This document shows positions 1,864 to 53,954 of a stretch of 64,000 nt of DNA, in pieces; positions within the stretch are counted from its first letter, which is position 1; every line of letters begins with the position of its first letter. A program made the translations under genes and the position numbers. This stretch comes from an uncultured bacterium (GTDB taxonomy: Bacteria; Babelota; Babeliae; Babelales; Vermiphilaceae). Below the pieces are notes generated by a model. It had not been told where the DNA came from. It did no database searches and worked only from the letters and a program-made list of their open reading frames with translations. The DNA is taken from NCBI GenBank assembly GCA_963840685.1, contig CAWIZM010000001.1, positions 752,286 through 816,285 of the forward strand, in the 5' to 3' direction.

Positions 1864-2856
1864 ATGAGAAAACAAATTTATATTCTCCCGTTGTTACTCT
1901 TGCTGAGCGTTTACTCTGCGCGATCTATGGAAAATCAAAAAGAATTAGCATTGCTTGTTGAATGTAATAGCAACAATTCGGTATGCCTGTTGCCAACTGA
2001 TATGCTAACCAAAATTATTGCTCATTATTATGATGATAAAGATCAAGTAAAATCTCTCAAGAGCACTATCGCAAACTTTATGAAATTAAGATCAACTTGC
2101 ACAGGTTGGAATAACTTATTAACGTTTGAGAAGATTGGTGATTTTTGTAAAAATTACCCTCAAGTTATCAAAAATGTTCTTTTAGGAGAACTAACCTATT
2201 CCTCTCGCTTGCCTATATTAGTACTAGTTCATGCCAGTATTGAACCGAGCATTGCTTTTCATAAAATAATTAATGCATTGCTTATCACCGTAGTCAGTAA
2301 AAATGATGTGCAATTGATTAGAATATTATTGAAACATATTGCAAAGCCAAAAGATTGCTTAGAAGAGATTAGAACGGTAGAAATAGCACAGATACTTTTT
2401 AACAATGGTGTAGATATACATACAACAGATTATTATGGACGTAACATTTTATGGAAATTGCTTGGTACATCATACCCATCAGATCTCATGAGGTTCTATG
2501 TTGCATGTGGTGTTGATGCAAGGAGACTAGATGGTTCTGGTGATACTTTGTTGCATAGCCTTGCACGTAAGGCATCAAAGATAAGATTTAGTGTCCCCAA
2601 TGAGGTTGATGATTTCTTAAAAAAAGCAGAATTATTGATAACGATGATTCCAGACATGATTAATAAATTTAACTGCCATGGATATGAATATGTTCAATAT
2701 GAAACGTCGCTTGGCATTGCTCAAAAATGTTTGAAAGATATAGCATCCAGTCATCGCTCTTTATGGGACGAAAAAAGAAGTCAAACAGAAGAAATTTTAG
2801 AGATAGAAGCTCTTGAAAAGCTTATTGTATTACTTCAGAAAAATGGTGCGTACTGA
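1864..2856 (+). CDS. Secreted ankyrin-repeat/F-box-like paralogue 1 (C-terminus truncated relative to paralogue 2 by a 2-nt indel)
   Basis: Signal peptide ending SMEN; F-box-like LPTDMLTKII motif; ANK-like GVDIHTTDYYGRNILWKLL and TLLHSLA. aaggag RBS. Paralogous to 2921..3982 etc. Confidence 0.6.
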   Translation: MRKQIYILPLLLLLSVYSARSMENQKELALLVECNSNNSVCLLPTDMLTKIIAHYYDDKDQVKSLKSTIANFMKLRSTCTGWNNLLTFEKIGDFCKNYPQVIKNVLLGELTYSSRLPILVLVHASIEPSIAFHKIINALLITVVSKNDVQLIRILLKHIAKPKDCLEEIRTVEIAQILFNNGVDIHTTDYYGRNILWKLLGTSYPSDLMRFYVACGVDARRLDGSGDTLLHSLARKASKIRFSVPNEVDDFLKKAELLITMIPDMINKFNCHGYEYVQYETSLGIAQKCLKDIASSHRSLWDEKRSQTEEILEIEALEKLIVLLQKNGAY

Positions 2857-2920
2857 CTGCACAGCAACTTGAAGAACAGAAAAATAGTGCAACATAATAA
2901 TTTAGGAGTTAATACATCAG

Positions 2921-3982
2921 ATGCAAAAACTAAATTCTGTTTTTAAGATCTGTATGGTTGTTGTTTTATTGAGTTCTCTGCCTATGCAAGGTATGGAAGA
3001 AGATTGGCAACGTTTCATACAAAATGCCCAAAGATATGATAGTAATGACAGTGATAATCAATTACTTTCATTGCCGATTGAGATGTTGGGCAAAATTGTT
3101 TCTCATCATTTTGATAATCAAGATCTTTACCCTGACCTCAAACTTTTCATGAAGTTAAGTACAGTATGCAAGCATTTTAATAGATTGTTGACGGTTGAGA
3201 CAATTGCTAACTGCTGTAAAAATTATGAACAACATAGAAGAGATTGGGTTTTAAACGATGTATTTAGTGATGAGCGTTTTAAGTATGTGGCAAAACGTTT
3301 ACCACTTTTAATTTTAGTGTGTGCTGGTGCTGATGATTATAAAGGCGAAATGTTTAGCACATGTCTGCAAAAAAATGACCTTGAACTAGTAGAAATGGTA
3401 TTCAAATATTATCCAAGTCAAAATAAAAGAAAAGCGTTAGGACCAAGTTTTTATCGTGTCAAAACAGTAGAAATGGCACAACTGTTTGTTGATAATGATT
3501 GTTTTGATATATATGGTGGTGGTTTTCATCCGGATGGTAAGCTTAATTTGTTATGGAAAATGGTTGATTCAGCATATTCGCTAGAACTGATGGAATTTTG
3601 TGTTAAGCATACTGATTATATAAAAAAATTAGCTCCTTGTGGGGTTGGTTATACGGCTAGCAATTTTTGTTTGTTGCATGCTATTGCACTGGAGTACCAA
3701 TCAGGTTGGATTACAAATCAGAATGATATTGATACTTTTTTGAAAAAAGCAAAATTTCTTCTGAGTATGATTCCAGATATGATAAATGCGACCGGAGCGA
3801 AGAATGAAACACCTCTTGATGTAGCCTATGCTAGCTTAGAAGATTTAAAAGAGACGGTAAGAAAGGGCTATGAAAGTAAAGAAAAAGTTTTAGCATTTGA
3901 ACAACTTATCGCATTATTTCGGGAACATGGTGCATTGACTGCACAGCAACTTGAAGAACAGAAAAATAGTGCAACACAATAA
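2921..3982 (+). CDS. Secreted ankyrin-repeat/F-box-like paralogue 2
   Basis: Signal peptide ending QGMEE; LPIEMLGKIV F-box-like motif; C-terminal HGALTAQQLEEQKNSATQ shared with family. Confidence 0.6.
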   Translation: MQKLNSVFKICMVVVLLSSLPMQGMEEDWQRFIQNAQRYDSNDSDNQLLSLPIEMLGKIVSHHFDNQDLYPDLKLFMKLSTVCKHFNRLLTVETIANCCKNYEQHRRDWVLNDVFSDERFKYVAKRLPLLILVCAGADDYKGEMFSTCLQKNDLELVEMVFKYYPSQNKRKALGPSFYRVKTVEMAQLFVDNDCFDIYGGGFHPDGKLNLLWKMVDSAYSLELMEFCVKHTDYIKKLAPCGVGYTASNFCLLHAIALEYQSGWITNQNDIDTFLKKAKFLLSMIPDMINATGAKNETPLDVAYASLEDLKETVRKGYESKEKVLAFEQLIALFREHGALTAQQLEEQKNSATQ

Positions 3983-4002
3983 TTTAGGAGTTAATACATC
4001 CA

Positions 4003-5169
4003 ATGCAAAAATTGACTTGTATCTTTAATTTTAATCTAATTTGTTTTTCAACCATTTTGTTCAGTGCGTTACCAGTGCAGGGCATGGAAGGAGCTTGGGA
4101 TCAATGTTTGGCAAGACTCGCATTGGTTAATGCTCAACTATGTAAATCATTAATTAATGCCCAAAGGTATGATAGTGATGATATGCCGGAATTAGTTCGA
4201 ATCAGTGATGATGAATTAATAGAAATAAGTAAAAGAAGGAAATTGGGGTTACTTCAATTAGCTAATGCCAAAGCCAAAGTAGAAGAGCTGAAGAATGATA
4301 TAAAAAGTTTCATGAAATTAAGTACCACATGTAAAAGCTGGAACAACTTTTTAACGTTTGAAAGAATTGGTAGCTTCTGTGAACATTATCCGCTAGAGAC
4401 CAAGAATGAAGTTTTACGATATTTGATAGAAAGCTGGGGCAGTAGTTTTGATGGTGAGTGTCGACCTACATTAATATTAATTTGTGCCGGTGCTGATATC
4501 GATACTAATCATCGCGGTAGAAGTGCTCTTAAAAGAGCTGTCTATAAAGATGATGTGCAATTTGCTAAAACATTATTTAGGTATAATGCAAACCCAAATA
4601 TACAAACATATTATACGTTCGTATCTGGATATTTTCCAGTTTTTTTCTGTGCTAACACGGTAGAGATGGTGCAGACATTTATTGAAAATGGCGTAGATAT
4701 ACAAGCAACAGATTTTGCTGGGCTTAATGTTTTATGGCATATTTTGTACAATGAAGGCTCAGCAGATCTGATGAAAGTTTATCTTGAACATGGGGTTGAT
4801 GCTACAAAATTACACCTTGGTGATAATGCTTGCTTATTACATGCCCTGGCGCATAGCTATTATATACCCTATATTGACAATTTCTTACAAAATGCAAATC
4901 TCCTACTCACGGCTATTCCTGGTATGATTAACACATTGGATGAGGATAATCTTACGCCTCTTGACGTTGCTCAAGAATCTTTGAAAGGGCTACAAGAAGA
5001 CGTAGAAGCGGAAAGCGCATTGAAAGACCTACAAGAAGATGGAGAAGAAGATGGAGTGGTGGAAAGCGCATTGGCATTTGAGAAATTTATCGCATTGCTC
5101 CGAGAACGTGGTGGTCTTACTGCGCAAGAACTTGGGATAATAAACATAGTGGAAAAACTTGATCAATAA
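4003..5169 (+). CDS. Secreted ankyrin-repeat paralogue 3
   Basis: Leader ending QGMEG; ANK repeat HRGRSALKRAVYKDDVQFAKTLFRYNANPN; C-terminal RERGGLTAQELG family motif. Confidence 0.6.
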   Translation: MQKLTCIFNFNLICFSTILFSALPVQGMEGAWDQCLARLALVNAQLCKSLINAQRYDSDDMPELVRISDDELIEISKRRKLGLLQLANAKAKVEELKNDIKSFMKLSTTCKSWNNFLTFERIGSFCEHYPLETKNEVLRYLIESWGSSFDGECRPTLILICAGADIDTNHRGRSALKRAVYKDDVQFAKTLFRYNANPNIQTYYTFVSGYFPVFFCANTVEMVQTFIENGVDIQATDFAGLNVLWHILYNEGSADLMKVYLEHGVDATKLHLGDNACLLHALAHSYYIPYIDNFLQNANLLLTAIPGMINTLDEDNLTPLDVAQESLKGLQEDVEAESALKDLQEDGEEDGVVESALAFEKFIALLRERGGLTAQELGIINIVEKLDQ

Positions 5170-5190
5170 GCACAACAAGGGATATTCTTC

Positions 5191-6277
5191 ATGCAGAAAT
5201 TAACGTTTAATTTTAATCTAATCTGTTTTTCAATTTTTTTGCTCAGTGTGATATCTGTGTGGGGCATGGAGGAAGAGATCAAGCATGATGTTACGCCTAT
5301 AGCAGCAAGCACGCGCAGAGGTTATAGTGTTCAGGATTTACTAAAACAATCACGTTATTGTATAGAACCTGAAGGTCTTGATCTAGCAAAAGAACTTACC
5401 ACGACTATTAAAAATTTTATGCGATTACGTGCCACCAGTGAAAGCTGCAATAGATTGTTTACCCCTGAAAAAATCGGTAGTCTTTGCAAAAGTTATCCCC
5501 AGGAGGTTAAGAATAACGTTTTACGCGATTTAGTAGAAAAAAATAGATACAGTATTCAGTATAAAACAAAGCGGCTGCCGATATTGATGTTAGTCTATGC
5601 TGGTGCTCGTGTCAGCGTTAAAATTAATAATAACTCTTTATTTGAAGATGCAATTGCGCACAATGATGTACCATTAATGAAAACATTGTTTAAATATCAC
5701 ACCTATCAAGATCTGACTGCCGGTATAGGGTTAAGGGAAAAGCCAAGTTTTTTTCTTGCCAAAACGGTAGAGATGGCCGAAAATATTCATTAAAAATAAG
5801 GTTAATGTGCATACAGTTTCTTCTGTATCCAAGACTAATATTTTGTGGGAACTCGTTAATGATCAACATTCATCAGAACTTATGGAATTTTATTGTGCAC
5901 ATAAGGTTGATGTGAAAAAGCTACGGCCGAGTGACCATTCTTGCTTGTTGCATAGAATTGCATTGTTTAATTTTTCTTGTTCTCCTTCGTCTATAAAAGG
6001 GCCACGTCCTTCTGATGATTTTGTATGGTCACATGCAGACTTGAGTGATAATTTCCTTAGAAAAGTAACGTTATTGTTGGATGTTATTCCCGGCATGATC
6101 AATGAATTAAATTGTAATAATGAGACACCTTTGGATATTGCTCAGAAGTCTTTAAAAAATGCACAAATGTATGATATTAAGGCAGTTATTGTATTAATCG
6201 ATCAACTTATTTTACTTTTCAGAAAACAGGGTGCTTTGACTGCACGGGAGCTTAAAGAGCAGGCATTGTTGAAATAG
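5191..6277 (+). pseudogene. Ankyrin-repeat paralogue 4, split into two ORFs (5191..5793 and 5807..6277) by a stop plus frame change
   Basis: N-part has the family leader and FMRL..CNRLFTPEKIGSLCKSYP motif. C-part has LLHRIA, TPLDIA and C-terminal QGALTARELKEQ motif. The two parts are in frames 1 and 2. Confidence 0.5.
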
Positions 6278-6308
6278 ATATATTGGTACTAACAAAGGGA
6301 GATTATGT

Positions 6309-7421
6309 ATGCACAAAGTAATTTTTAGTTTTAATATCATCTATATTTCAATTATTTTTTTCAGTGCATTACCAATGCACGGCATGGAGAAAGAGAACTT
6401 GTGTGAACCGTTGTCTGTAGAAGAATCTGATTACGTTGATCATTTTCTTGCATTACCTGGTGAAATACTGCCCGGCATGCAATCACTTGAAGATAGCGTT
6501 AAATTTTTTATGAAATTGAGCACCATACACAAAAAATGGCATGCATTATTGACGTATGAAGAAATTGGTCACCTTTGTAAATACTATTCACAAGATGATA
6601 AAAACCGGGACTTAGTTTGTACATCAAATTTTCTAATTACACACGGCTATACCTCTAAACGTTTGACGCTATTAACTTTAATATGTGCTGGCGCGAATAC
6701 TATAGGACGTATGTTGCTTGAGAGAGCAGTTATTCAAAATGATGTACAATGCGCAGAAATGATATTCAAGTATTATGAAAATCCCAAAGCCTCAATAAAA
6801 GTATTGAGGGATGGTCCAATACATTCCGATAAAAAATTTAATATATTTCCTATAATTTGCAGTATAGAGATTGCATATATACCATTATTATTTGCGGTCA
6901 AAAGCGTAGATATGGCAAAGATATTTATCGCTCATGGCGCAAACATGCATGAAACCATGTACGATGAGACCTCTACAATAGTACAAAATACAGATTATCA
7001 GAATACCAATGTTTTGTGGCACATAATGGACAATAGTTACCCATCAAGCCTCATGGAATTTTATCTTGCACGTCAGGTTGATACAACAAAACTGTGTGTC
7101 TCTTATAAAGGGAACTTGCTGCATAAGTTTGCTGCAACACCGTATTCAGGTAATATAAGCAGTCTTGATAACTTTATACAAAAAGCAAAACTATTGCTTA
7201 CTACCCTTCCTGCTCAAATTAATGCGTTGAATCAACGTGATCAAACGCCGCTCAATATCGTTAAAAAATCTTTGAGAGCTTTAAAGAAAAGTAAAAACGT
7301 TGCAGCAAAGTTAGCTTTTAAGGTGCTTATTGAATTATTTCAGGAGCATGGTGGTTTTGTGGCAGAAGATCTTAATCGGCTTGCGAATTCTAAATGGATG
7401 AGTCAGCAAAGTTCAATGTAA
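6309..7421 (+). CDS. Secreted ankyrin-repeat/F-box-like paralogue 5
   Basis: Leader ending HGMEKE; LPGEILPGM; FMKLSTIHKKWHALLTYEEIGHLCKYY family motif; ANK-like repeats; C-terminal QEHGGFVAEDL. Confidence 0.6.
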   Translation: MHKVIFSFNIIYISIIFFSALPMHGMEKENLCEPLSVEESDYVDHFLALPGEILPGMQSLEDSVKFFMKLSTIHKKWHALLTYEEIGHLCKYYSQDDKNRDLVCTSNFLITHGYTSKRLTLLTLICAGANTIGRMLLERAVIQNDVQCAEMIFKYYENPKASIKVLRDGPIHSDKKFNIFPIICSIEIAYIPLLFAVKSVDMAKIFIAHGANMHETMYDETSTIVQNTDYQNTNVLWHIMDNSYPSSLMEFYLARQVDTTKLCVSYKGNLLHKFAATPYSGNISSLDNFIQKAKLLLTTLPAQINALNQRDQTPLNIVKKSLRALKKSKNVAAKLAFKVLIELFQEHGGFVAEDLNRLANSKWMSQQSSM

Positions 7422-7423
7422 AA

Positions 7424-7460
7424 AAATAGCGACAGTTTTTTACGCTGTCGCTATTTTTAT
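7424..7460. terminator. Bidirectional rho-independent terminator between convergent genes
   Basis: Hairpin atagcgacag-ttttttacg-ctgtcgctat followed by a T-run. Confidence 0.6.
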
Positions 7461-7520: not shown

Positions 7521-7967
7521 TTACGCTTCTTCGTCTTCGCATTCAACTTCGCAACCATCTTCTTCACCAGGGAAGAAAAGGCCAAGTTCGCGTTCAGCAG
7601 ATTCAGCAGAATCAGATCCGTGTACTGCATTGTTACCAATACTTTTACCGAATAGTTTTCTGATGGTTCCTGCATCCGCTTTGCTCGGATCAGTAGCGCC
7701 CATTAGTTTACGGAAATCAGCGATGGCATTTTCTTTTTGTAGTACCATAGCGATGATAGGTCCGGAAATGATGAACTCAACAAGTTCACCAAAGAATGGA
7801 CGTTTGCTGTGTTCTTCATAAAACAATTCAGCATCTTCTTGCGCGAATTGCATTTTTTCCATGAAGACAATTTCAAAGCCATTTTTTTCGATCAAATCAA
7901 TTATTTTGCCACTGTTTTTTGCTTCTACTGCATCGGGCTTAATCATTGCAAATGTATATTCTACCAT
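7521..7967 (-). CDS. ndk: Nucleoside diphosphate kinase with a short acidic C-terminal tail
   Basis: MVEYTFAMIKPDAV..., NAVHGSDS motif. Extra acidic tail EEDGCEVECEDEEA. Confidence 0.9.
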   Translation of the reverse strand: MVEYTFAMIKPDAVEAKNSGKIIDLIEKNGFEIVFMEKMQFAQEDAELFYEEHSKRPFFGELVEFIISGPIIAMVLQKENAIADFRKLMGATDPSKADAGTIRKLFGKSIGNNAVHGSDSAESAERELGLFFPGEEDGCEVECEDEEA

Positions 7968-10242: not shown

Positions 10243-11826
10243 ATGAAACGTTTTTATCAATTATTGTTTGTTGTTGCTGCTTTGGTAAGTGGCACTGTGT
10301 ATGGCATGGAAGTAAATATTAGGGATGCTGATTATGCTGGTCTTATGACGTATCTGAGGGCGAACGGTTATAATTTTAGTGAAGAACAACCATATGAGTA
10401 TGAAGCAAATGCATCTAAGGTGTTACCTGACATAGAAACATTTCTCTTTGCAAATGCAGAACAACAGAATGACTCGTATGTTCAATTATGCATATCTTAT
10501 TTAAATCATTGTTTTTCATCAACTGAATGCAAACCAGAAACTATTGAAGAAATGCTCAGAGCGCGTTTTACTGGTAATTCAGCAAAAGCATTGTTCTATG
10601 CTCCTTATAGACAATTCATGGTTGGGCAGTTGCAATTGGATAAATTGTATCCAGCTATAGAGGCTATTTGTAAGTCAAAAGATATTGATGCAATTTTAGG
10701 TTGGCTATCAATATTTGATGGTATAGATAATTCATGTGAAGTAATGCTTGTTGATCAAGGACTTAGCAAGGTAATAGCGCCTAAAAAGGGAAATGTGATT
10801 GCAATGAGTCCAGAAGAGCATTCATTGTTGCAAAAGGCTAATCATTTACAAGGACGCGGTAAAGCGTTTATTGATACACTGCGCGAGCAAGATCAAAAAG
10901 ACAAAAATGAGCGTCAACAGTTACGTGCAAATGCAGAAAAAAGAAAAGACAACATAGCTGGGCAAATATTTAATGCTCTTAAGCCAAATCAAGAGGCTCG
11001 CTTAGATCAGTTACTGCAAGATGAGTTAATTGGTGATGATGCGCCATTAGGTGAATATCGTGATTTTATTAATGCTGAAATTCAAAAAAGAATAAACGCC
11101 CCTAGGGTAAAAGCAGAAGATCGTGTAGTGCTATTAAACACATGGAACGCTAAGTTTGCTGCATTACCTGTTCAGGTAAAGCCAGAACCGGTGATAATTC
11201 CAGTGATAATTATTGATAATAAGCCACAACAACCGTTAAATCATAATCAAAATAATAATATTCCTAACAATCCAAGCATAGTTTTTCCTTGTGTAGGAGC
11301 AACCTTTTTATTTAATAAAGATGGGAGTCCGTTATCATCTAAAAACCTTGATGATTATCCAGATGGATATGATAAAGATGGCAACAAGATGGTATGGGAT
11401 GATTCTATTAAGAAATATATATTCGAAGGGCAACAACGAAGCGTTACTGAAAAACCAGAAGAACCAAAAGTAGAGTTACCTCAACAACCGCCTCAACAAC
11501 CAAACCAACCAAATGTAGATGGTCAGCCACAGCAACCAGTGCCAAATGCACCAAAAGGCATAGCTGCACTATTCGCGGCAATTACCGCACCTAGATTAGT
11601 AGTTGCGGCAGTTGTGGTGGGTGTATGTTATTGGGGTTACACTAAATATCAAGATTATAAAGCAGTTGAATCCTCCTCCGCCAAGGCTTCGGCGGACAAG
11701 GAATCCTCCTTCGCTAAAGCTACGGCGGACAGGGAAGCTGCAGCTGAGCAAAACAAGCAAAGTAAACAACGCATGCATAAGCAGCAACCAGTGCGCAAAC
11801 CGGTACATAAAAAGCGCACACGCTAA
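10243..11826 (+). CDS. Secreted Pro/Gln-rich protein with a C-terminal TM anchor and basic tail. It contains an in-frame GC-rich repeat insertion
   Basis: Leader ending VYGMEV; PQQP repeats; TM LVVAAVVVGVCYWGY; GC-rich segment at 11655..11725 encoding SSSAKASADKESSFAKATADREAAAEQ. Confidence 0.5.
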   Translation: MKRFYQLLFVVAALVSGTVYGMEVNIRDADYAGLMTYLRANGYNFSEEQPYEYEANASKVLPDIETFLFANAEQQNDSYVQLCISYLNHCFSSTECKPETIEEMLRARFTGNSAKALFYAPYRQFMVGQLQLDKLYPAIEAICKSKDIDAILGWLSIFDGIDNSCEVMLVDQGLSKVIAPKKGNVIAMSPEEHSLLQKANHLQGRGKAFIDTLREQDQKDKNERQQLRANAEKRKDNIAGQIFNALKPNQEARLDQLLQDELIGDDAPLGEYRDFINAEIQKRINAPRVKAEDRVVLLNTWNAKFAALPVQVKPEPVIIPVIIIDNKPQQPLNHNQNNNIPNNPSIVFPCVGATFLFNKDGSPLSSKNLDDYPDGYDKDGNKMVWDDSIKKYIFEGQQRSVTEKPEEPKVELPQQPPQQPNQPNVDGQPQQPVPNAPKGIAALFAAITAPRLVVAAVVVGVCYWGYTKYQDYKAVESSSAKASADKESSFAKATADREAAAEQNKQSKQRMHKQQPVRKPVHKKRTR

Positions 11827-17889: not shown

Positions 17890-19032
17890 TTAATCTGCAA
17901 CATATTCTTTTACCGGTTCTATGAGGATGCTGCTTATATCAAACAATTCAACTTTACCATGAGATTGTACTGTTTTTAATGCAATAGTATTTGCAACGAA
18001 AACTTTTTCAAAATTGCTTGTTTGAACCCTATCCAAGGCATTATTGGAGAGTACTGGATGCACAAAATAACCAAAAACATGTTGCGCTCCTCTTTCTACC
18101 AATGCATCACATACCTGTAATGCGGTACCGCCAGTATCAATCATATCATCAACAATTATTGCGGTGGGCGTACTGAGTTCGCCAGACATACTCATAATTG
18201 CGGTCTTGTTTTGCGCATACCGATTTTTTGTGAAATATATGGTGTTACTATTTAGTTTTTGCGCAATGGTATGAGCGCGATCATATGCACCTTTGTCCAC
18301 CGCAATTAATGATACACCGTGCGATAGATCGATGTGCTCTCTAATATGTTGGGTGATGAGGTCAAGAGGAGAGAGTGAATGGAAGGGGATAGTGAAAAAG
18401 TTTTTGAGTACTGGTGTATGTGCTTCAATGGTCACTACTTGGTCGATACCTGCGTTTTGAAGCAATTGTGCGACAACGTGTGCAGGGCCAAATTTGCCAG
18501 GAATACGGCTCTTTTCTTGTCGTGAATAACCAAAATAAGGAATGATAGCAGTAATTTTTGTGCATCCGGTATTTTTAAGTTCATGCGCTAAAAATGCAAC
18601 ATGCATAATCTGTTCCTGTGGGGAGGGATAGGTTGTTTGAATAATAATGGCATGTTTGTTTAGCCAAAAATTAGCATCTTTATCTGTCTCTTTAAGGGTG
18701 ACTTCTGTTTCGCCGTCAGAAAACCGTGTAACTTGTGCATGATGCAAGTACTTATCAAAATGCTCAACAAGGGAGAGTCCTATGCTTGAGGTATCGAGGG
18801 CTATAAATTCAAAACCGTCTTTACTTTCTGAGCAATCAATCATTTCTTGAGAATTATTTTTGCTTTCTGTAAAGCTTCCGCTATCTACTGCATATGGCAA
18901 AGAATATGGATATGCTGGATTGTCTTTGTTTGTTTGATTTACATCGAGCATGCCTACAAGATTTCCGTTGAGCGTTAGGAGTATGAGTGCGAGGTGTGAT
19001 ATGAAGAAGTTTTTCATGAGCAGCTCTTTCAA
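17890..19032 (-). CDS. prs: Ribose-phosphate pyrophosphokinase paralogue 2 with an about 75-aa N-terminal extension carrying a signal peptide
   Basis: Full-length Prs homology (RFSDGE, IPYFGYSRQE, IVDDMIDTGGT) preceded by MKELLMKNFFISHLALILLTLNGNLVGM leader. Confidence 0.8.
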   Translation of the reverse strand: MKELLMKNFFISHLALILLTLNGNLVGMLDVNQTNKDNPAYPYSLPYAVDSGSFTESKNNSQEMIDCSESKDGFEFIALDTSSIGLSLVEHFDKYLHHAQVTRFSDGETEVTLKETDKDANFWLNKHAIIIQTTYPSPQEQIMHVAFLAHELKNTGCTKITAIIPYFGYSRQEKSRIPGKFGPAHVVAQLLQNAGIDQVVTIEAHTPVLKNFFTIPFHSLSPLDLITQHIREHIDLSHGVSLIAVDKGAYDRAHTIAQKLNSNTIYFTKNRYAQNKTAIMSMSGELSTPTAIIVDDMIDTGGTALQVCDALVERGAQHVFGYFVHPVLSNNALDRVQTSNFEKVFVANTIALKTVQSHGKVELFDISSILIEPVKEYVAD

Positions 19033-45570: not shown

Positions 45571-48064
45571 TTACGCAACAGGTGCTGTTTTCTGATTGCG
45601 ATAAGTTGTAAGCAGAGGATTTGCTTCACCCATTTGAACAACATCTTTCAGTTGTTGCGCACGACCTTCTGATTTTTTATCAGTATTGTCTACAACAATT
45701 TTTTTCCTGCGTTCTCGTTTTTGCTGTTTTCTGCCTGGTGCTTTATGCCGTGATTCTTCTCTGTTTAATGTTTCATCATCCTTGACAAATTCATCCATAG
45801 CTTCTGCTGCTTCAATATTATTTTTAAAGAAGAATCGTGTTACTGGATCTTTGAGCGAATCAAACAATGAGCCTTCCACAGCATATTGTTTAGCAAGACC
45901 TATGTAATCTTTCGCATGTTGATGTATGCCGCCACGTAAGTTAGGCATAATAATGGTTGGTGAAATAAATACGGTTAAATTGTCTTTGCTGTTATCAGAG
46001 CTTCTATTTTTAAAGAACCATCCAAGAATTGGTATTTTTGAAAGTAGTGGAGTTTCATTTTCCGCATCATCATTTTCGGTACTTATCAGACCACCAAGTG
46101 CTAAAATACTTTTATTTCTTATATTTGCGTTGGTATGTACTTCGCGTGTATTTATAGTGTTTATAAATCCAGGCGTATTTGTGGCAAATGTATTGATTTC
46201 TATATCTACATTGAGGTTAATAATATTATCTGGGCTAATGCGTGGCGTAATTTTTACTTTAAGTGATGCTTCAATTGGGTCTTGTTTAATATTTGCGGCC
46301 TGCGTACCTAATGATGCTTCGCCAAGTACGAGCCGTGTTGTACCAACTTTAATAGATGCCTGTTTATTATCAATAGAAACCACGTGAGGATGAGAGATAA
46401 TTTTTGTAGCGTTAAAAGAACGCAACACTTGAAGTAGACTCCATGTCTCGCCATCTTTATCGTTAAATGAAATTATTGCGCTACCTTGTGGTGCCAAGCC
46501 GGCGATATTAGAGACTGTGGGAGGGGATTAGGATTGTTCAACGTATTGTGCAAGCAGATTACCCGCTATGGTTCCTGGGAATATAGATGTATCAACAATT
46601 GGTGGTACTAATTGCGCTGACTGAATATTGATTTGACTTGGCAAGCATGAGTTGAGATTACGTGTTTGTTGGCCAAGTTGGCGAAGATCATCAATACTGA
46701 CGTCAGCAATGAGTACTTCGATAAATACCTGAGGGAATGGTTTGTCCAACTGTTCAAGGAGATGCTTGATACGCTTCCAATCATCATTACGTGCAGCAAT
46801 AATCAGTCTATTGCCACCTGAATACTGATATTTAGCGCTACCTTTTTCACCCGGTGCTGCCGGAGCGCTGGGTTGATCACCTTCGGGAATGTCTGACTTA
46901 ATAATCACCGTGTCAAAAAAGCGTTCTGGTCCTCCACCAGCTCCTCTTTCTGACTTGCTTTGTCCGGTTACCCGCAGCATCCTTTGATCCTATAACGCTT
47001 TCCAAAACAGGAACTATTTTTTGAGCATCCAGGTAGAGCAATGTATAGACATGCAGTACTGATTTACCTGAATCAGGTTCAAGATCGATATAGGTCTCAA
47101 TAAAATCTTTAATTCTATCGACTGCTTGTGAACGTCCAACGACAATTAATGAATTAGTACGCCCTTCATCAATAATGCGGGTATTTGGTGCAAAATAGGT
47201 TTCACCCGGTTTGCGCGCATCGTTACGCATATGTGGTCCAGTAGGCAGTGCAGCTTTAAGAAGACCTTCAGTGAATAAATTTTTAATATCCTTTGCGGTA
47301 GTATGTTTTAATTTAACGATTTCCATTTTTTCATGGAAACCACCTTTGTCCAGTTGTTTGACAATAGCCATAGCACCCTTGATGGTGTCGGCTTTACCAA
47401 CTAAAATTAATGCATTGGCATTAGCATCTGTAAAAAAGGCAGTAGCGCCAGGAGCATTTGACGGAGTAGTAGATGGTCCAGAAAAAATATGATTGAGTAC
47501 TGCGGTGAGTTCATTATCCTGTGAACCAGCACCCGGAGCGGTAGGAACTTTCATATTGCTCAAATAATGTACATACCGAATACGTACGTCACCATCGGGT
47601 AAATCATCAAATGCGGTACCTATAAAAGTTGGCATTGGTTCAGAAATAATGCCTGGCGATGTTTCAGGGATGCGTATGATGGCAAACATGTCACCTTGTG
47701 GTTTAATGGCGTACCCTGCAACGTCAAGAATGGTATACAAGAGATTCCATGCCTCATCAACAGTCATTTTTTCTTCTACATAAAACGTAAGTTTGGCTGT
47801 CTAATTCGGACAATAGGTGGTTTTTGGGGAAGCACAATATTGATATCTCTTTTCTGCTGCGATCAGATTAATGACATCAACCAAATCCTTGTTTTGAAAT
47901 TGGAACAGGAATGTTTTTTTGTTAGCTAATCGTCCATGGTCGATTGTATTTTTTGAAGCGTTTATTGTGGTATCGCTTTGTTCTTGGATTATAGGTTCTT
48001 CAGCTGCATGCAATAGGTTGCTGGCGATAAGGAGATTACATACTATTATTATTACTCTATTCAT
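45571..48064 (-). pseudogene. Second secretin (GspD/PilQ-like) gene fragmented into four ORFs (47801..48064 signal+N0 start, 46913..47767 N domains, 46528..46980, 45571..46497 secretin C-domain)
   Basis: Collinear secretin homology across the four ORFs in different frames; paralogous to the intact upstream secretin. Confidence 0.65.
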
Positions 48065-48730: not shown

Positions 48731-50269
48731 TCAAGTTCGCGCACAAGCGTAGTGAGTGCAGGAAAATCTTTTACGCGACCTTTTAATGTCATAGTCGCCA
48801 TCGGTTATAGTAATTTTTTCTAAAGCGAGCTCAAGCGATTCTTTATCAATGCGACTGGTTAATTCAAGTAAATATTTTAAGAACAAAGCAGGAGACTGGC
48901 TTGAAAATGCGAACCATGTTTTTTCTTCCCGTGTAAGTTCTTCTTGTGCTTTTTGTAGAGCTTCTTCAAGCTCATTGGTATCTTCTGGTATCGAATTTTT
49001 GAACTTTTCCCTGAGTACCTCAACGGCTTGTTCTTCAGAACTTGCTATCTCTTTTTCCAAGCGACTTGTTTGTAGATAACTGTAGGTAACCAAGGTACCA
49101 AGCAAAAGTAATATGAGTACCATCATAGTTATACATTGCGTATACAGCAGGGCACGATTAGATGCGGCTAACTCTCCCTTGCGCAGATTGAACAGTTCAG
49201 TCAAAGGCAGTGGTAATGCAATAGCAGTACTCATGATGCAACTTTGCGGTAGCACCTGTTTATTTTTAATGTGTACGTGCGGAATAGTGTTTATTTTTTG
49301 TGGTTCAAAAATTTCACACGGTATGGTAATTAATTCCGAAACAAAAGGACATAATCCCTTCAGTTGTGCGCCAGGTCCGAGCAGTACTAATTTTTTGATA
49401 GCATGTTCAGGCGAGCCATGTAGCGTGAAGGAAGTAAGGGTAAAGCGTATGTCTTCCCAAAAGGCGGTACAGCTGGTGGTCATAGCATGGCCATATTCAG
49501 GCCAATCAGTCGTGCTAATGCCAAAACGCATTATGTGGTCCATTGCTTGGCCAACAGTGATGCCAAGTGCATCACCAACTGATTTTGCAAGATGTATCAT
49601 GCCTTTAGAGAGTGTACGGATTAAACGTAGTTGTCCATTGTCAATGTAGGTAATGCGTGTCGCGCTCAGTCCAAGATCAATCAATGCAATGGTTGCATGA
49701 GATTGTTCATATTCAGGAATAGCTTGGTACAACGCATAGAGAGAAAACAGATCAACGGTCACCACATCAGGAGTAATGCCTGCAAGAGCAAGCAGTTCCA
49801 AATGTTTGATGACATGCTGTTTTTGCACTGCAGCAACCAACACTTGTGCACTTTGATCTTCACTATTTTGTTTCGTGATAATAAAGTCTATCACTGCATC
49901 TTGCAATGAAAATGGCAGAAGCGGTTCAACTTCAAAATTAATAATGAGTTTGATTTTTTCATGCGTGGTAAACGGTAATTTGAGTTCTTTAAATACCACC
50001 ACGGAACTTGGCAATGCGGTGCGTACTTCTTGCACTTTACCTACTTGGCTCATTATTTGTTTTAATGTGGCAACAGTGCGCTCGGTATAATCGGTTGCAT
50101 TACTTGTTTCTAATCCCATTTCAATAGTTTGTTCAATGGTCAGTGAAGAGCCACTTGCGCGTACTACCGTTGCACTAATATCGGTTTTGCCGATATCAAT
50201 ACCGACAATCCGTTTGGAAAAAAGATAATGAGAACCTATTTTTTCAGGTAACAATATATTTTTGATCAT
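48731..50269 (-). CDS. GspL-like protein (PilM-type actin-like cytoplasmic domain fused to TM and a PilN-like periplasmic domain)
   Basis: IVGIDIGKTDISATVV actin-fold start; central TM LLYTQCITMMVLILLLLGTLV; 4-bp overlap with the secretin gene. Confidence 0.55.
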   Translation of the reverse strand: MIKNILLPEKIGSHYLFSKRIVGIDIGKTDISATVVRASGSSLTIEQTIEMGLETSNATDYTERTVATLKQIMSQVGKVQEVRTALPSSVVVFKELKLPFTTHEKIKLIINFEVEPLLPFSLQDAVIDFIITKQNSEDQSAQVLVAAVQKQHVIKHLELLALAGITPDVVTVDLFSLYALYQAIPEYEQSHATIALIDLGLSATRITYIDNGQLRLIRTLSKGMIHLAKSVGDALGITVGQAMDHIMRFGISTTDWPEYGHAMTTSCTAFWEDIRFTLTSFTLHGSPEHAIKKLVLLGPGAQLKGLCPFVSELITIPCEIFEPQKINTIPHVHIKNKQVLPQSCIMSTAIALPLPLTELFNLRKGELAASNRALLYTQCITMMVLILLLLGTLVTYSYLQTSRLEKEIASSEEQAVEVLREKFKNSIPEDTNELEEALQKAQEELTREEKTWFAFSSQSPALFLKYLLELTSRIDKESLELALEKITITDGDYDIKRSRKRFSCTHYACART

Positions 50270-52839
50270 GATGCTGCCTCCACGGTGTCAGCTGATATAT
50301 AATCACGTAGGGATGACCGTGTTCGTTCTTTTTTCTTCAGCTGTGCATGCATTATTGGGTTGTCAGAAGGCATGGCGTTATCTGTTGCTAATGAGCCATT
50401 CTGAGCATTATTTCCTTGCGATGGTTGCTTTGGTCCAGGAGCCATTACAGGACTGAGTTTTTCTTTTTTGCTTACATGACGTTCAAACAAGAATTTTTCA
50501 ATAACTTGCTCAGTCGAGGTGTCAGACGGCTTAAAGAATGAGCGATAGACCGGATCACGTTCATCATGCGGGTTGAGCGTAGCAGCTAAATCCTCTTGAT
50601 ATTCTGCAATGCGTTCTTTGGTGAAAGGTTGTTCCTGCATTGCTTTTTCAGGCCGTACAATTTGAGATGAAATGAGTATCAAGAGATTTGATTTTATGGT
50701 TGTTTTTGTCTTGTTTTTAAATAGCCAACCTATGACCGGTATATCACCCAAAAAGGGCACTTTTGTTACCACATCGGTAATATTGTTTTGGATCAGCCCG
50801 CCAAGCGCAAGTACTTCCTTGTCAGCGACAATGGCAAAGGTATTGACGTCTTCTATCGATGTATTCGCTGTTGAACCGGCAGTAGTTGTAGTAAATCGTT
50901 CGATATGCACATTGATATCCAAAATGATCATGCCATCAGAATTAATCTGTGGTTTAATGGTTACTTTTAGATCTGCTTTTTGTGGTGTATTTGATGTAGT
51001 TTGTGGTTGATTAGGGTTGCCACCAGTAGTAATCGTACCATTTATTACACGACGTGTTTGACCTACTGATACTGATGCTTCACTTTTATTGGTGGCTACT
51101 AAAAATGGATTGGAGACTATTTGCGTATTGGTGATAGTTTCCAAGAGTGCGAATACTCCCCATACACCAAAGAGATCTTGCCCCAAGGTAAGCACCGTAC
51201 TACCAACCGTAGCGGAGGTTGCTAAACTTATAAGATTACCAAGTAGCGTGGTGGCTCCGACACCGCTTGGATTGGTAACGATTCCTTGGCCAAATAAACC
51301 AGATGTTTGAAAATTGATATTTTTACCCAACAGGTTATCCGCACAGCCGGTTGTTTTGCTTCTCAATTGAGTGCCCAGTGATTTATTGTTATCTAATTGG
51401 AGCTCGAGTATGAGTACTTCTATGGCAATTTGTGGCTGAGCGACGTCAAGCTTATCAATAATTTCTTTGGCAGCCATATAATCTTCATAACCACCTTTGA
51501 TAATCACTTGATTAGTTTCTTCTTCTGGTGTAAATGTTATCGGTTTTAAGTATTTATCCTCTCCGCGTACGCCGCCACTTGTTTCTACGCCGGGAGTTCT
51601 TTCACCTAATTTGGTTGTCTCATTCATAATTGCTGCTATGGTCTTTGCATCCGCATATTTAAGTTTATATATATTCAATGGTGAGTACGGTTGTTCTAAA
51701 TCGATATCAATATTTTTAATAATAAAATCTTCTATTTTCTGAATAGCATCCCGCTGGCCAAGTAATATCAGTGAATTGGTACGTTTTTCCGCGATAATTT
51801 TAGTGTTTTCAGGAAAATAAAGTGATGTTGGCGCTTTGCGTGGCCCCATCATACGTGGTTGTTCTGCTGGTTTTGTCAGTGAATCATATAAGTCTGCAAC
51901 GTCTTTAGCATTGGCTTGCCGTAATTTCAATACTGACATAGCTTGAGGCATAGACACTTTATCAAGCTCTTTCACAATCTTCATAAGCGATTTAATATTA
52001 TATGATCTGTCGGTGATCAAAAGCGCTTTACTTTCAGGAAGACCAATAGCAGGTGCGCTTGCTGTTTTAAGTGCGGTAACAATTGGCACGAGCGTGGTCA
52101 GATCGCTATTTTCAATAAAGTACATGAAGCGAATAATTTCATCACTGTCAGGTAGCTCGTCTATGCTGGTACCAATGAAAGTGCGCAAAGTGGATTGATA
52201 AGCATCTTTGGTAGGTTTAATGCGATACATGTGTGGCGTTGCTTGTTGTACCAGGGTAAATCCAGACACATCCAAGAATGTGATAAAAAGGTTCCATGCT
52301 TCTTGTTTCGTTAATGGATCGTTTGTTTTGAAGGTGATTTTGTTGCCTTTAATGGCGATTGTATTTTTTGGTAAAGGATCAATGGCATCGTCGGTAATGA
52401 AGGTGACATCAAAGATAGCTTCAATTTGTTGAATTAAATTTTGCAGCGACGCTCCCTCAAAATTAAATTCTATCGTCGGCTCTTCTTCTTTTTTTGTTTC
52501 AACAGGTTTGGGCCCTGGTGCCTCTTGTTGCAGTTCTATGGGCAGCGCATATTTATCTTCATCAAAAATAGATTGTGTATTTGGGGCTTGAGCAGCGGTT
52601 TGCGCATCAGTGGATTCCACTTGTGCATCACTGACATCCATGAGCTGTTTTAAATCAGTAATTTTTGATTTTCTTGCTGCGAGTTTCTGCTCAGTTTTTG
52701 TATGTTCTTGTTTTTGTGCAAGTTCTTTGCGGCGACGGCGACGCGTAAGCCATGATGCATCCACGACGGTATCCATCAACAGTAGGCAACTAACTAACAA
52801 TAATGGTGTCCATTGCAATCTATTTTTATTATTCATCAT
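50266..52839 (-). CDS. gspD: Type II secretion/type IV pilus secretin
   Basis: N0-N1-N2-N3 then secretin domain (VPFLGDIPVIGWLFKNKTK), 857 aa, signal peptide. Confidence 0.85.
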   Translation of the reverse strand: MMNNKNRLQWTPLLLVSCLLLMDTVVDASWLTRRRRRKELAQKQEHTKTEQKLAARKSKITDLKQLMDVSDAQVESTDAQTAAQAPNTQSIFDEDKYALPIELQQEAPGPKPVETKKEEEPTIEFNFEGASLQNLIQQIEAIFDVTFITDDAIDPLPKNTIAIKGNKITFKTNDPLTKQEAWNLFITFLDVSGFTLVQQATPHMYRIKPTKDAYQSTLRTFIGTSIDELPDSDEIIRFMYFIENSDLTTLVPIVTALKTASAPAIGLPESKALLITDRSYNIKSLMKIVKELDKVSMPQAMSVLKLRQANAKDVADLYDSLTKPAEQPRMMGPRKAPTSLYFPENTKIIAEKRTNSLILLGQRDAIQKIEDFIIKNIDIDLEQPYSPLNIYKLKYADAKTIAAIMNETTKLGERTPGVETSGGVRGEDKYLKPITFTPEEETNQVIIKGGYEDYMAAKEIIDKLDVAQPQIAIEVLILELQLDNNKSLGTQLRSKTTGCADNLLGKNINFQTSGLFGQGIVTNPSGVGATTLLGNLISLATSATVGSTVLTLGQDLFGVWGVFALLETITNTQIVSNPFLVATNKSEASVSVGQTRRVINGTITTGGNPNQPQTTSNTPQKADLKVTIKPQINSDGMIILDINVHIERFTTTTAGSTANTSIEDVNTFAIVADKEVLALGGLIQNNITDVVTKVPFLGDIPVIGWLFKNKTKTTIKSNLLILISSQIVRPEKAMQEQPFTKERIAEYQEDLAATLNPHDERDPVYRSFFKPSDTSTEQVIEKFLFERHVSKKEKLSPVMAPGPKQPSQGNNAQNGSLATDNAMPSDNPIMHAQLKKKERTRSSLRDYISADTVEAAS

Positions 52840-53954
52840 GGTTTTTCAATCCCAACTTCTTGTTCAGGTGTTTGGGTTCGTGGCGCTTTGCCCTGTTTTT
52901 GCATAAGCTCTTTTTCATGCATACGAATTTCTTGCATGGTAGGCGCAAATGCATGTTTTTGTTCGAGTATTTTCTGCTTTTTTTGTTCTTCTTCTTGTGC
53001 TGCGAGCGCAATTTTTTGTTGATCACGTTTGCTTGGTTTATTCGATTGCACGGTAAAGAGGAGTTCACTTTCTTCATTGTGTCGCATTAACACTACCTGA
53101 ATTACCCCTTCATCTTGCGTTGCCAAGATATCTTTGTAAATTTTTAAGCGCTCATCAGTGGTGTTTGTTGGTACACCATTAATCGTTTTGATAATATCAC
53201 CCGATTTAAGTCCTAAATAAAAGCCAAGTGATTTGTCTTCTATTTCACCGACACGACATCCAACGCTTTTGCCATCTTTATAGGCAGTGGTGAGCCCTAA
53301 CAGATCGATAAATTGTGCGAGGTTTTTTATCCGTAGTAAAAATTCTGTGGTATTGATAACAAATTGATCTTTTTTAACTTCCTGTATCGCATCTGCCCAA
53401 GAAGCAATGGCAGCATAGGCGGGATCAAGCTGCGCATCTTGTTCGCGCAGATAAAGAACCTCTTGTTGGCCATTCGAACGGAGCAGTATAATTTTATTGC
53501 TGAAAATGCGGATTAATTGTGCATCTTCTACCGCATCGCCGACTTTGTATGTTTTTTCTGCGGTTGTTTTATTGTCTTGTATAATCGCACGATTTTTATC
53601 TTCTTGCGAACTCATGACAAGAATGCCCTTGAGCGTGATGTTGAGTGGATCAATAAACTGTGGTGTAGGGATTGGTGGCACAACGGCTACTTGGGGTTTT
53701 GGTGCGGGAGGCAGCGTGGGTAACGCTTTTTCATGAGGAGAGACTGCTTTTTCTTGATAGGTACCAAAAAGATCATGTTCATATATTTTTTCTATATAAA
53801 TAGGTGGTGTCTCAGTTGATTCCTGAGTTTCCGGTTTTGTTGGTTCTATTTTTGAACGCTTTGGTAGTGGCGCGCTCATAAAATATATGCACAACAAAAC
53901 GAGAAGAAAAATACATAACAGTACGCTATTTGCAATCCAAAAAGGATGTTTCAT
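52836..53954 (-). CDS. GspC-like protein (TM, Pro-rich linker, HR-like domain, PDZ domain, C-terminal coiled coil)
   Basis: PDZ-like GLKSGDIIKTINGVP; N-terminal TM; ATGA overlap with the secretin start. Confidence 0.5.
   Translation of the reverse strand: MKHPFWIANSVLLCIFLLVLLCIYFMSAPLPKRSKIEPTKPETQESTETPPIYIEKIYEHDLFGTYQEKAVSPHEKALPTLPPAPKPQVAVVPPIPTPQFIDPLNITLKGILVMSSQEDKNRAIIQDNKTTAEKTYKVGDAVEDAQLIRIFSNKIILLRSNGQQEVLYLREQDAQLDPAYAAIASWADAIQEVKKDQFVINTTEFLLRIKNLAQFIDLLGLTTAYKDGKSVGCRVGEIEDKSLGFYLGLKSGDIIKTINGVPTNTTDERLKIYKDILATQDEGVIQVVLMRHNEESELLFTVQSNKPSKRDQQKIALAAQEEEQKKQKILEQKHAFAPTMQEIRMHEKELMQKQGKAPRTQTPEQEVGIEKP

Follow-up and report, generated by a model that had tools for sequence, protein, structure and literature searches.

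Ankyrin and F-box-like proteins at a probable host interface

Dependentiae (TM6) are widespread, almost uncultured parasites of protists and, to our knowledge, their control of the host is known only from gene inventories. Here we analyze five consecutive paralogous genes (g1 to g5) at positions 1864-7421 of a 64-kb stretch of contig CAWIZM010000001.1 (the whole stretch is called the window), whose predicted products combine an N-terminal leader, a divergent F-box and ankyrin (ANK) repeats. Their closest described counterparts are the secreted ANK proteins of the same phylum: Babela massiliensis has 126 ANK proteins, 79 of them with a signal peptide (PMC4378268), and Chromulinavorax destructans has 98, 78% of which carry one (PMC6561590). 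F-box domains were noted across TM6 genomes (PMC4776705), and F-box, RING and other ubiquitin-system proteins have been reported in Dependentiae genomes (PMC4378268, PMC4776705). With its Dependentiae genome, its leader plus ANK repeats and its many paralogues, the array falls within these secreted-ANK expansions, which it resembles in phylum, in joining a signal peptide to ANK repeats, in massive paralogy and in the inferred role of the proteins as secreted host-manipulation factors (PMC4378268, PMC6561590). What sets the array sub-family apart from the described Dependentiae ANK proteins is a 25-residue leader, a split F-box, about five ANK repeats, a GGLTAQEL tail and fusions to RING-between-RING (RBR) domains; we found no description of the sub-family in the Dependentiae papers PMC4378268, PMC6561590 and PMC4776705.

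Outside the phylum, the same order of an N-terminal F-box followed by ANK repeats is found in AnkB (Lpg2144/LegAU13) of Legionella pneumophila, an amoeba-associated intracellular bacterium. AnkB, which PMC4776705 also cites, acts as a mimic of an SCF (Skp1/Cullin-1/F-box) substrate adaptor; it has only 2-3 ANK repeats and a C-terminal CaaX farnesylation motif, it has no Sec leader, and its translocation depends on the Dot/Icm type IV system. In contrast, the window proteins start with a leader, and their F-box contains a 13-residue insert. We saw no sequence relationship with AnkB above that of shared domains. An AnkB-like CaaX motif was looked for and rejected (the C-termini are NGAY, SATQ, KLDQ, ALLK and QSSM, with no Cys at -4), and we found no Dot/Icm genes among the annotated open reading frames (ORFs) of the window, which covers 64 kb of a genome of at least 931 kb. 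The ANK/PRANC proteins of poxviruses, Orientia, Rickettsia and Wolbachia also join ANK repeats to an F-box-like module in large paralogous families at the host interface (PNAS 2008, as cited in PMC6561590). In PRANC proteins the F-box-like, Skp1-binding module is C-terminal and follows the ANK repeats, the reverse of the window proteins, in which the F-box is N-terminal to them, and PRANC gave no match in any of our Pfam scans.

Considering the evidence below, we give a probability of roughly 60% to the reading that the array encodes exported F-box/ANK paralogues that exploit the ubiquitin machinery of the host. According to this model, the Sec-type leader would carry the proteins across the inner membrane, and a second step, with the type II secretion system (T2SS) of the window or vesicles as candidates, would release them from the parasite into the host cell. 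Once there, the F-box would dock on host Skp1/Cullin-1 and the ANK repeats would pick host proteins for ubiquitination, and g3 to g5, with a degraded F-box, might act only as ANK binders. Leader cleavage, host delivery, Skp1 binding and the substrates are what we infer from the features of the proteins. The proposal in the preliminary description of this locus that the genes are eukaryote-like effector candidates is in line with a source among the Dependentiae, an intracellular parasite, with the RBR- and RING-fused relatives of the family and with a phylum known for signal-peptide ANK proteins.

The array encodes five ankyrin-repeat paralogues

Gene calls were based on an ORF listing and an alignment. 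Both support the tandem family proposed earlier: the five genes are consecutive, lie all on the + strand and encode proteins with pairwise identities of 28-40% at the amino acid (aa) level. No further copy of the family was found in the 64-kb window by tblastn. The five genes are as follows (in leaders, a slash marks the predicted cleavage site):

1864-2856, + strand: g1, 330 aa; leader at aa 1-21 (..SARS/ME), F-box-like module at aa ~42-98 (LLPTDMLTKII ... FMKLRSTCTGWNNLLTFEKIGDFCKNY) and ANK region
2921-3982, + strand: g2, 353 aa; leader at aa 1-24 (..LPMQG/ME), F-box at aa ~47-102 (the most complete of the array), ANK region and intact tail (...HGALTAQQLEEQKNSATQ)
4003-5169, + strand: g3, 388 aa; leader at aa 1-27 (..LPVQG/ME), only the second half of the F-box kept (FMKLSTTCKSWNNFLTFERIGSFCEHY), about five ANK-like helix pairs at aa ~130-340, then C-terminal helices with RGGLTAQEL
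5191-6277, + strand: g4, read as two ORFs at 5191-5793 (200 aa) and 5807-6277 (156 aa), 361 aa in the repaired frame; LP half of the F-box absent, second half degenerate (FMRLRATSESCNRLFTPEKIGSLCKSY)
6309-7421, + strand: g5, 370 aa; leader at aa 1-25 (..LPMHG/ME), F-box with a shortened helix 1 (ALPGEILPGM) and a retained second half (FMKLSTIHKKWHALLTYEEIGHLCKYY), 30-aa insertion in the ANK region, tail HGGFVAEDL

Of the elements that had been listed as shared, the alignment contains in all five proteins the leader, the stretch FMKLSTxCKxWNxLLTFExIGxFCKxY, the ANK region and a C-terminal HG(A/G)LTAQ(Q/E)L; the tail motif can be written (H/R/Q)G(A/G)LTAxEL for the array proteins and corresponds to a 'GGLTAQEL' helix in the family. 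Genes g2, g3 and g5 have uninterrupted frames of 353-388 codons, and their products match the family profile over the full length with 405-458 bits (405 bits for g5); g4 also gives a full-length alignment.

Regarding the ANK region, we searched for the Pfam clan Ank (PF12796, PF13637, PF00023 and others) at curated cut-offs. In g3, four models scored above them: Ank_2 with 35.0 bits (cut-off 27.3), Ank_5 with 32.1 (27), Ank_4 with 31.4 (22.7) and Ank with 22.9 (21.1). Ank_4 was also found in g1 (23.8 bits, cut-off 22.7), and g2, g4 and g5 alone gave no Pfam ANK match. When compared with PDB sequences, the family profile matched a DARPin (E 3e-14) and ankyrin-2 (E 2.7e-10), with further ankyrin/DARPin chains down to 1e-6. 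The AlphaFold2 (AF2) model of g3, with a mean predicted local distance difference test score (pLDDT) of 81.9, shows about five helix pairs at residues ~130-340. Its Foldseek matches in the PDB included DARPins (E 4.4e-7, root-mean-square deviation (rmsd) 2.9 Å, ~195-198 columns), and it was superimposed on ankyrin-1/AnkB with an rmsd of 3.5-3.8 Å over 250 columns. These results confirm that the array proteins are ankyrin-repeat proteins with about five repeats. We also observed an internal 39-nucleotide (nt) tandem duplication in g3 (4981-5073; LKGLQEDVEAESA / LKDLQEDGEEDGVVESA, repeat families D9/D14), which lengthens the acidic linker before the C-terminal helices.

A divergent F-box, probably split by an insert

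An LPxEiL motif had been attributed to all five genes, with FMKLST as a separate, family-specific motif. The LPxEiL motif is present in g1 (LLPTDML), g2 (SLPIEML) and, in shortened form, g5 (ALPGEIL), and is missing from g3 and g4. As for FMKLST, the Pfam and Skp2 alignments assign it to helices 2-3 of the same F-box, which would then be arranged as helix 1 (LPxExLxxIxS), an insert of ~13 residues, and helices 2-3 (FMKLSTxCKxFNxLLT). Judging from these alignments, the LPxEiL and FMKLST motifs appear to be the two halves of one divergent F-box.

Both halves are found in g1 and g2. The Pfam F-box-like alignment of g2 (aa 49-90) covers both 'LSLPIEML' and 'FMKLSTVCKHFNRLL', with an E-value of 0.014 for the whole protein and of 7e-4 (19.7 bits) for the module alone. 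Among 42 N-terminal modules of the family, F-box-like was detected in 24 (E<=0.01) and F-box in 17, with a best E-value of 1.3e-5, and no other Pfam family was recurrent. Aligned by hhalign with the F-box of Skp2, the module profile gave a probability of 90.7% and E 1.2e-6; the 38 aligned columns are 39% identical and are interrupted by 13 inserted residues. The helices LPxE(L/I)LxxIFS and (V/T)CKx(W/F)xxL correspond in both. Compared with Skp2, the window proteins are bacterial, have a putative signal peptide and the ~13-residue insert, and carry ANK repeats instead of an LRR (leucine-rich repeat) or WD40 substrate domain. A HMMER search of PDB sequences with the module profile gave co-linear split matches to the Skp2 chains 1ldk_E and 1fs1_A, together with LRR noise caused by the 'LxxLP' motif. 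Family-wide, the second half (FMKLSTxCKxFNxLLT.ETIG.LCK.Y) is the best conserved stretch, and the canonical LPxExLxxIFS is retained by most members.

Several results weigh against a working F-box in the array. Using the curated cut-offs of PF00646 (F-box, 20.5 bits) and PF12937 (F-box-like, 24.3 bits), no gene of the window reaches the Pfam gathering score: the best is g2, with 19.7 bits for F-box-like and 15.7 bits for F-box, followed by g1 with 14.1 and 11.9 bits for the F-box-like and F-box models (F-box E 0.045, F-box-like E 0.19). The 14.2 bits of g3 come from the second half only, a long helix taking the place of the first half in its AF2 model, and g4 and g5 have no Pfam F-box match at all. 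The Skp2 matches in the PDB search are sub-threshold (E 0.6-1.1), and the Skp2 sequence used with hhalign was checked only against the Skp2 fragments of that search. Modelled in isolation, the N-terminal module gave a low-confidence AF2 structure (pLDDT 67, predicted template modelling score (pTM) 0.37) that had no Foldseek matches. By these measures the five window genes themselves encode a weak F-box, the first half of which is lost or degraded in g3 to g5. The profile check suggested in the preliminary description therefore gave a firm answer for ANK and a divided one for the F-box, which is supported at the family level by the hhalign comparison with Skp2 and stays below the Pfam cut-off in the window genes.

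A putative Sec-type leader with a Met-Glu boundary

All five proteins start with M-x-K, followed by 15-20 hydrophobic residues, a small residue at -1 and then Met-Glu. By inspection and a hydropathy scan, K or R occupies residues 2-3 and the Kyte-Doolittle mean over 12 residues is 2.3-3.0; g2, g3 and g5 have Pro at -4/-5, the residue at -1 is G (S in g1), and V, M, S or A is found at -3. The leader thus has the positive n-region, the hydrophobic h-region and the small -3/-1 residues of a signal peptide, with putative cleavage. In the family, an N-terminal hydrophobic window is present in 105 of the 146 representatives that start with Met, and the pattern x-x-[GASC]/M[EDKNQL] occurs near residue 25 in 92 of the 146, most exceptions resembling truncated gene calls; the consensus of the leader is MKKLTFxLNxxWxSxxLLSxLSxQG/ME. 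These features point to a Sec-type export signal.

The public gene call for g2 (P0028, 342 aa) begins at an internal Met, 11 codons downstream and inside the leader (2921-2953), and so the deposited annotation hides the g2 signal peptide; this later start is also the reason why an exact look-up of g2 failed. Several 'leaderless' representatives of the family, such as MSVILLSTLSMQGMD..., look like similarly shortened calls.

Three points speak against delivery of these proteins to the host. The long hydrophobic stretch (up to ~20 residues) could remain in place as a membrane anchor, a Sec leader takes proteins no further than the periplasm, and no type III, IV or VI system was seen among the annotated ORFs of the window. 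A candidate outer-membrane route for the leader-bearing proteins is a T2SS/type IV pilus-like cluster at 48731-53954 on the - strand, comprising PilM/GspL-like (48731-50269), GspD (50266-52839) and GspC (52836-53954) genes and followed after GspC by a MoxR-type AAA ATPase (54089-55081). A second secretin with Secretin_N and Secretin domains, 29-34% identical to that GspD, is located at 45574-47800 (- strand). An in-frame stop at 46528-46530 and a frameshift near 46916-46989 divide it into three ORFs, and it is probably a pseudogene.

A Met at +1 is unusual for bacterial signal peptides. In the window and at other Dependentiae loci, a Met directly after the predicted cleavage site is also seen in many unrelated ORFs with signal-peptide-like N-termini, with boundaries such as THA/MN, VYG/ME, LMS/ME, VYG/MD, ATA/MD, SHA/ME and LQA/MS, and several of these ORFs continue into F-box-like LP/FP motifs. 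In the window, the ORFs with this boundary are:

+ strand: 589, 10243 and 41870
minus (-) strand: 15787, 19017, 23287, 23906 and 28037

At the other Dependentiae loci (L004, L006-L009, L014, L017 and L019-L021), a '[GAS]M' boundary is found in 24 of 63 such ORFs; in some exported proteins with no effector-like motif, for example the product of a recurrent ORF (...KA/QSVFILIHG), the boundary differs. Two of these loci, near rpsA in other Dependentiae (L006 and L007), have small signal-peptide ORFs in which 'A/ME' is followed by F-box-like motifs (YFPKEIESRIIHYL, RFPQEIWKHIAHYV); these ORFs gave no match to the family profile at E<=1e-5. Since the ME/MD boundary occurs on unrelated effector-like ORFs, one could argue that the conserved leader of ~25 residues with Met-Glu/Asp marks a Dependentiae-specific effector class, a speculative idea that we rate as rather unlikely. 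The leader might in that case sort proteins into the second secretion step towards the host, or the Met might be a second start codon that gives exported and leaderless isoforms.

Five old members of a large Dependentiae family

The RpsA protein encoded in the window is 60-68% identical to those of 16 Babeliales/TM6/Dependentiae-type genomes, by which the source genome is a member of the Dependentiae. A profile search of 1.84 billion cluster representatives returned at least 257 full-length family clusters at E<=1e-30; among the matches listed, most relatives have 300-450 aa. The same 931-kb contig encodes, outside the window, at least one further member (P0010), in which the F-box is duplicated. 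Scanning species-representative genomes with g3 gave nothing, the source genome not being among the GTDB representatives, and a scan of viral contigs with g2, sensitive to close relatives only, was equally negative and showed no giant-virus link.

Five members of the family (P0025, P0050, P0062, P0081 and P0106) have C-terminal IBR/RBR domains above the Pfam cut-offs, and another five (P0005, P0036, P0044, P0052 and P0075) have C-terminal RING-like fingers. These fusions tie the family independently to ubiquitin transfer. As further variants, some RBR-fused members also carry extra ANK repeats, P0004, P0010 and P0027 have two tandem F-box modules, P0026 is a single protein made of two complete family units, and in P0025 we saw only the second unit together with a second F-box-type motif.

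Members of this family as a rule lie in tandem: L019 and L022 have four copies each (one of those in L022 is split), L021 has three and L020 has two. The arrays at L019 4883-10646, L020 11145-14780 and L021 928-5762 adjoin glycosyltransferase or UDP-sugar dehydrogenase/epimerase gene clusters, a neighborhood that the window lacks. We also retrieved 17 other genomes via rpsA, nearly all of Dependentiae type, and none has a family member within 3 kb of rpsA, so the location of the array is lineage-specific.

Aligning the paralogues, as had been proposed, and comparing them with relatives showed a shared architecture and, for each copy, a relative in another organism that is nearer than its array mates (28-40%). 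The closest relatives found elsewhere are:

g1: several, ~37%
g2: P0101, 46%
g3: P0002, 48%
g4: P0035, 61%
g5: P0048/P0063, ~41%

With closer relatives elsewhere, these copies are old, and homogenisation of the array is not under way. The array is best described as a set of five long-diverged members of a large protein family of the Dependentiae (TM6), an already known gene class.

A short conversion-like patch and the truncation of g1

The junctions downstream of g1 and g2 had been described as almost identical, and the array as undergoing gene conversion and decay. Positions 2854-2946 and 3936-4028 are indeed 90% identical over 93 nt. Within their core (2854-2918 and 3936-4000), stretches of 41 and 21-23 nt match exactly on a background of 50-56%, and the best 60-nt window has an identity of 0.97. 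The recombination-tract check, performed as a column-shuffling permutation test, detected this one significant patch (p<=0.0005 for the 41-nt run). In the remaining eight gene pairs the longest runs were of 9-17 nt, and the only marginal pair was that of the g3 and g4 leaders (17-nt run, p ~0.02). The two copies of the patch are:

2854-2918, + strand: copy A, with what is left of a g2-type tail, out of frame (LTAQQLEEQKNSAT), then a stop and an AGGAG ribosome-binding site, ending just before the ATG of g2
3936-4000, + strand: copy B, with the in-frame tail of g2, its stop and a ribosome-binding site, up to the ATG of g3

We conclude that a gene-conversion patch of ~65 nt, containing the g2 tail, the spacer and the ribosome-binding site, was copied onto the g1/g2 junction, with copy B as the probable donor. 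A recent whole-gene duplication or unequal crossover was considered and rejected, as identity falls to background within ~10-25 nt on each side.

The loss of the g1 C-terminus through a 2-nt indel was reproduced. An excess of 2 nt at ~2850-2853 (GCGTAC/TGACTG vs GCAT/TGACTG) puts a TGA in frame, and its removal restores the tail ...NGALTAQQLEEQKNSAT (also given as ...GALTAQQLEEQKNSAT); only the last 13 residues of g1 are missing. Given that the 5' edge of the patch coincides with the site of the indel, the truncation may be a by-product of the conversion event.

The exact 330-aa product of g1 is encoded on contigs from six sequencing runs. For five Logan contigs, from five runs, the DNA was available: they are 99.4-100% identical to the window and all end at 2883, 30 nt into the 41-nt repeat. 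An independent contig (L001), 99.93% identical to the window over g3, starts at 3947, with the last 30 nt of the second repeat copy. We infer that these breaks reflect k=31 assembly graph branching at a true repeat. As the contigs break inside both copies of the repeat, the duplicated patch and the truncation of g1 are genuine. The case for gene conversion is confined to one patch of ~65 nt; the divergence elsewhere in the array is old, and to present the whole array as undergoing conversion was an overstatement. The overall pattern suggests birth-and-death evolution with rare, short conversion, in which split copies recur across strains and species. Paralogous effector arrays with birth-and-death and short conversion patches are common in intracellular bacteria.

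The g4 frameshift

Gene g4 is split, as had been noted, by one extra base (the G at 5779, or an A of the run that follows), whose removal gives a frame of 361 codons. Across this site the relatives P0016 and P0035 read E-M-A-K-(I/V)-F-I-K-N-K-V. Homopolymer slippage as the cause of the frameshift is unsupported: the relatives read GCC-AAA-ATA, and the extra base is more simply the G. The split products are found in the NCBI/ENA record only. A Logan contig of ERR11718639 encodes an uninterrupted 361-aa g4 between an exact g3 and a 370-aa g5, and its coordinates are shifted by -1 nt relative to the window from the g4 stop codon onward. This intact allele is known from gene coordinates only; two reconstructions of it were absent, by exact look-up, from the collection searched, and it was not among the results when the repaired g4 was used as query in a homology search. 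A more distant strain has a different g4 frameshift, 30-40 nt upstream (P0014/P0016), and P0035 is an intact relative (61% identical). The g4 split may be a polymorphism or a sequencing error and not a fixed loss. Regarding decay, the lesions of g1 and g4 exist and are mild: g1 loses 13 residues, and a separate assembly, of almost the same strain, lacks the frameshift of g4. The g5 allele (P0018) of another assembly is 99.2% identical.

Transcription and neighboring genes

The intergenic gaps of the array are, in order, of 64, 20, 21 and 31 nt, and a GGAG-like ribosome-binding site precedes each start codon. Downstream of g5 we found:

7422-7458, no strand assigned: terminator-like hairpin of 15 bp flanked by an A-run and a U-run, between g5 (+) and ndk
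7521-7967, - strand: ndk, convergent with g5

By RNA folding, the hairpin has an energy of -19.8 kcal/mol and a z-score of -6.2, with 0 of 200 shuffles equally stable, and it is the sole strong terminator-like structure in or after the array. Its 7-nt loop is inside the 3-8 nt accepted by the consensus terminator scan, yet it is absent from the scan list. It looks like a bidirectional intrinsic terminator. Considering the short gaps and the only terminator being after g5, g1 to g5 are probably co-transcribed. A sigma-70 promoter scan gave a number of sites no higher than in shuffled sequence, and an Rfam scan of the whole window gave zero matches.

Upstream of the array, a gene on the + strand (589-1839) ends 24 nt before g1 and is possibly co-transcribed with it. 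It encodes a 416-aa protein with a putative signal peptide and a C-terminus (...AIDF) whose last residue is aromatic (Phe), as in outer-membrane beta-barrels. The protein has no Pfam or NCBIfam match, and the gene is kept with at least 90% identity in several metagenome contigs (P0021-P0024).

Two other genes of the window encode proteins with leader-like N-termini. The 527-aa product of 10243-11826 (+ strand) has a putative signal peptide (VYG/ME) and a Pro/Gln-rich center, and near its C-terminus a transmembrane segment precedes a strongly basic tail (..KQQPVRKPVHKKRTR). It belongs to no assigned family and may be a further factor that interacts with the host. The product of 17890-19032 (- strand) is PRPP-synthetase-like (Pribosyltran_N, Pribosyl_synth) with a signal-peptide-like N-terminal extension (MKNFFISHLALILLTLNGNLVG/ML...), and is either an exported enzyme of nucleotide metabolism or the result of a start codon called too far upstream.

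Weighing the alternatives

The main competitor of an F-box that exploits the host ubiquitin machinery is a set of exported ANK binders that no longer use it, the module being a degenerate relic or a structural cap. Host proteins would then be sequestered, relocalised or inhibited without recruitment of the SCF ubiquitin ligase. We regard this as possible and clearly less probable. It would account for the lack of the LP helix in g3 and g4, the shortened helix of g5, the failure of all the genes at the Pfam F-box threshold and the single long helix in the corresponding region of the g3 model; besides, the LP-less g4 type is intact in P0035 (61%), so that a function with no need of helix 1 is apparently maintained. 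It does not explain why the second F-box half is the best conserved stretch of the family, why most members keep the canonical LPxExLxxIFS and g1 and g2 both halves, or why the family is fused to RBR and RING E3 domains of ubiquitin transfer. A very unlikely alternative is that the array encodes periplasmic or membrane-anchored ANK proteins of the parasite's own envelope, for example in immunity or self-protection, as with the ankyrin proteins of Bdellovibrio that PMC6561590 cites, and that their resemblance to an F-box is functionally meaningless. The sole export signal seen is a Sec-type leader or anchor at the N-terminus, the gene 24 nt upstream resembles that of an outer-membrane protein (signal peptide, C-terminal Phe), and the arrays of other genomes adjoin glycosyltransferase (envelope sugar) genes, all of which would fit; however, we know of no partners for F-box, RBR or RING domains in bacteria, and a large, fast-evolving family is what is expected at the host interface. 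Moreover, the signal-peptide ANK proteins of Dependentiae have been read as secreted into the host (PMC4378268, PMC6561590).

The lesions and repeats of the array could also raise the question of whether it is alive, or real. That it is mostly dead DNA, made of decaying pseudogenes with no current function, would be in keeping with the truncated g1, the frameshifted g4, the different g4 frameshift of another strain, the split copy in the related array L022 and the fragmented secretin elsewhere in the window. We find it highly improbable: g2, g3 and g5 are intact and full-length to the family profile, g3 is predicted to fold with confidence, g1 loses 13 residues only and has an identical allele in six sequencing runs, g4 is intact in an independent assembly and the ribosome-binding sites are kept. 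An assembly or sequencing artefact could also be suspected behind the frameshifts and the similarity of the junctions: the sequence comes from one contig of 931 kb, possibly from a long-read assembly, and the split g4 is confined to the NCBI/ENA record, the Logan assembly having the intact gene. The Logan contigs ending at 2883 and contig L001 starting at 3947 exclude an artefact for the junction and for g1, which leaves the g4 frameshift as the only feature to which it could apply; as an account of the array, it is almost certainly wrong. We thus favor exported F-box/ANK paralogues that would exploit host ubiquitination.

Significance for Dependentiae biology

The array is otherwise expected genome biology, as secreted ANK and F-box proteins are already described in the phylum. 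What it offers is a well-delimited family in which the subversion of SCF ubiquitin ligases by Dependentiae can be tested, and which can also be used to test how proteins with a Sec leader reach the host cytosol without classical injection systems. Of the points left over, the one of most interest is the conserved leader, in which Met-Glu/Asp comes directly after the site of predicted cleavage. If it did mark an effector class, the leader, the insert-containing F-box and the RBR-fused relatives would form a phylum-wide, self-contained toolkit for hijacking host ubiquitination, with a secretion route unlike the type III and type IV systems of known F-box effectors.

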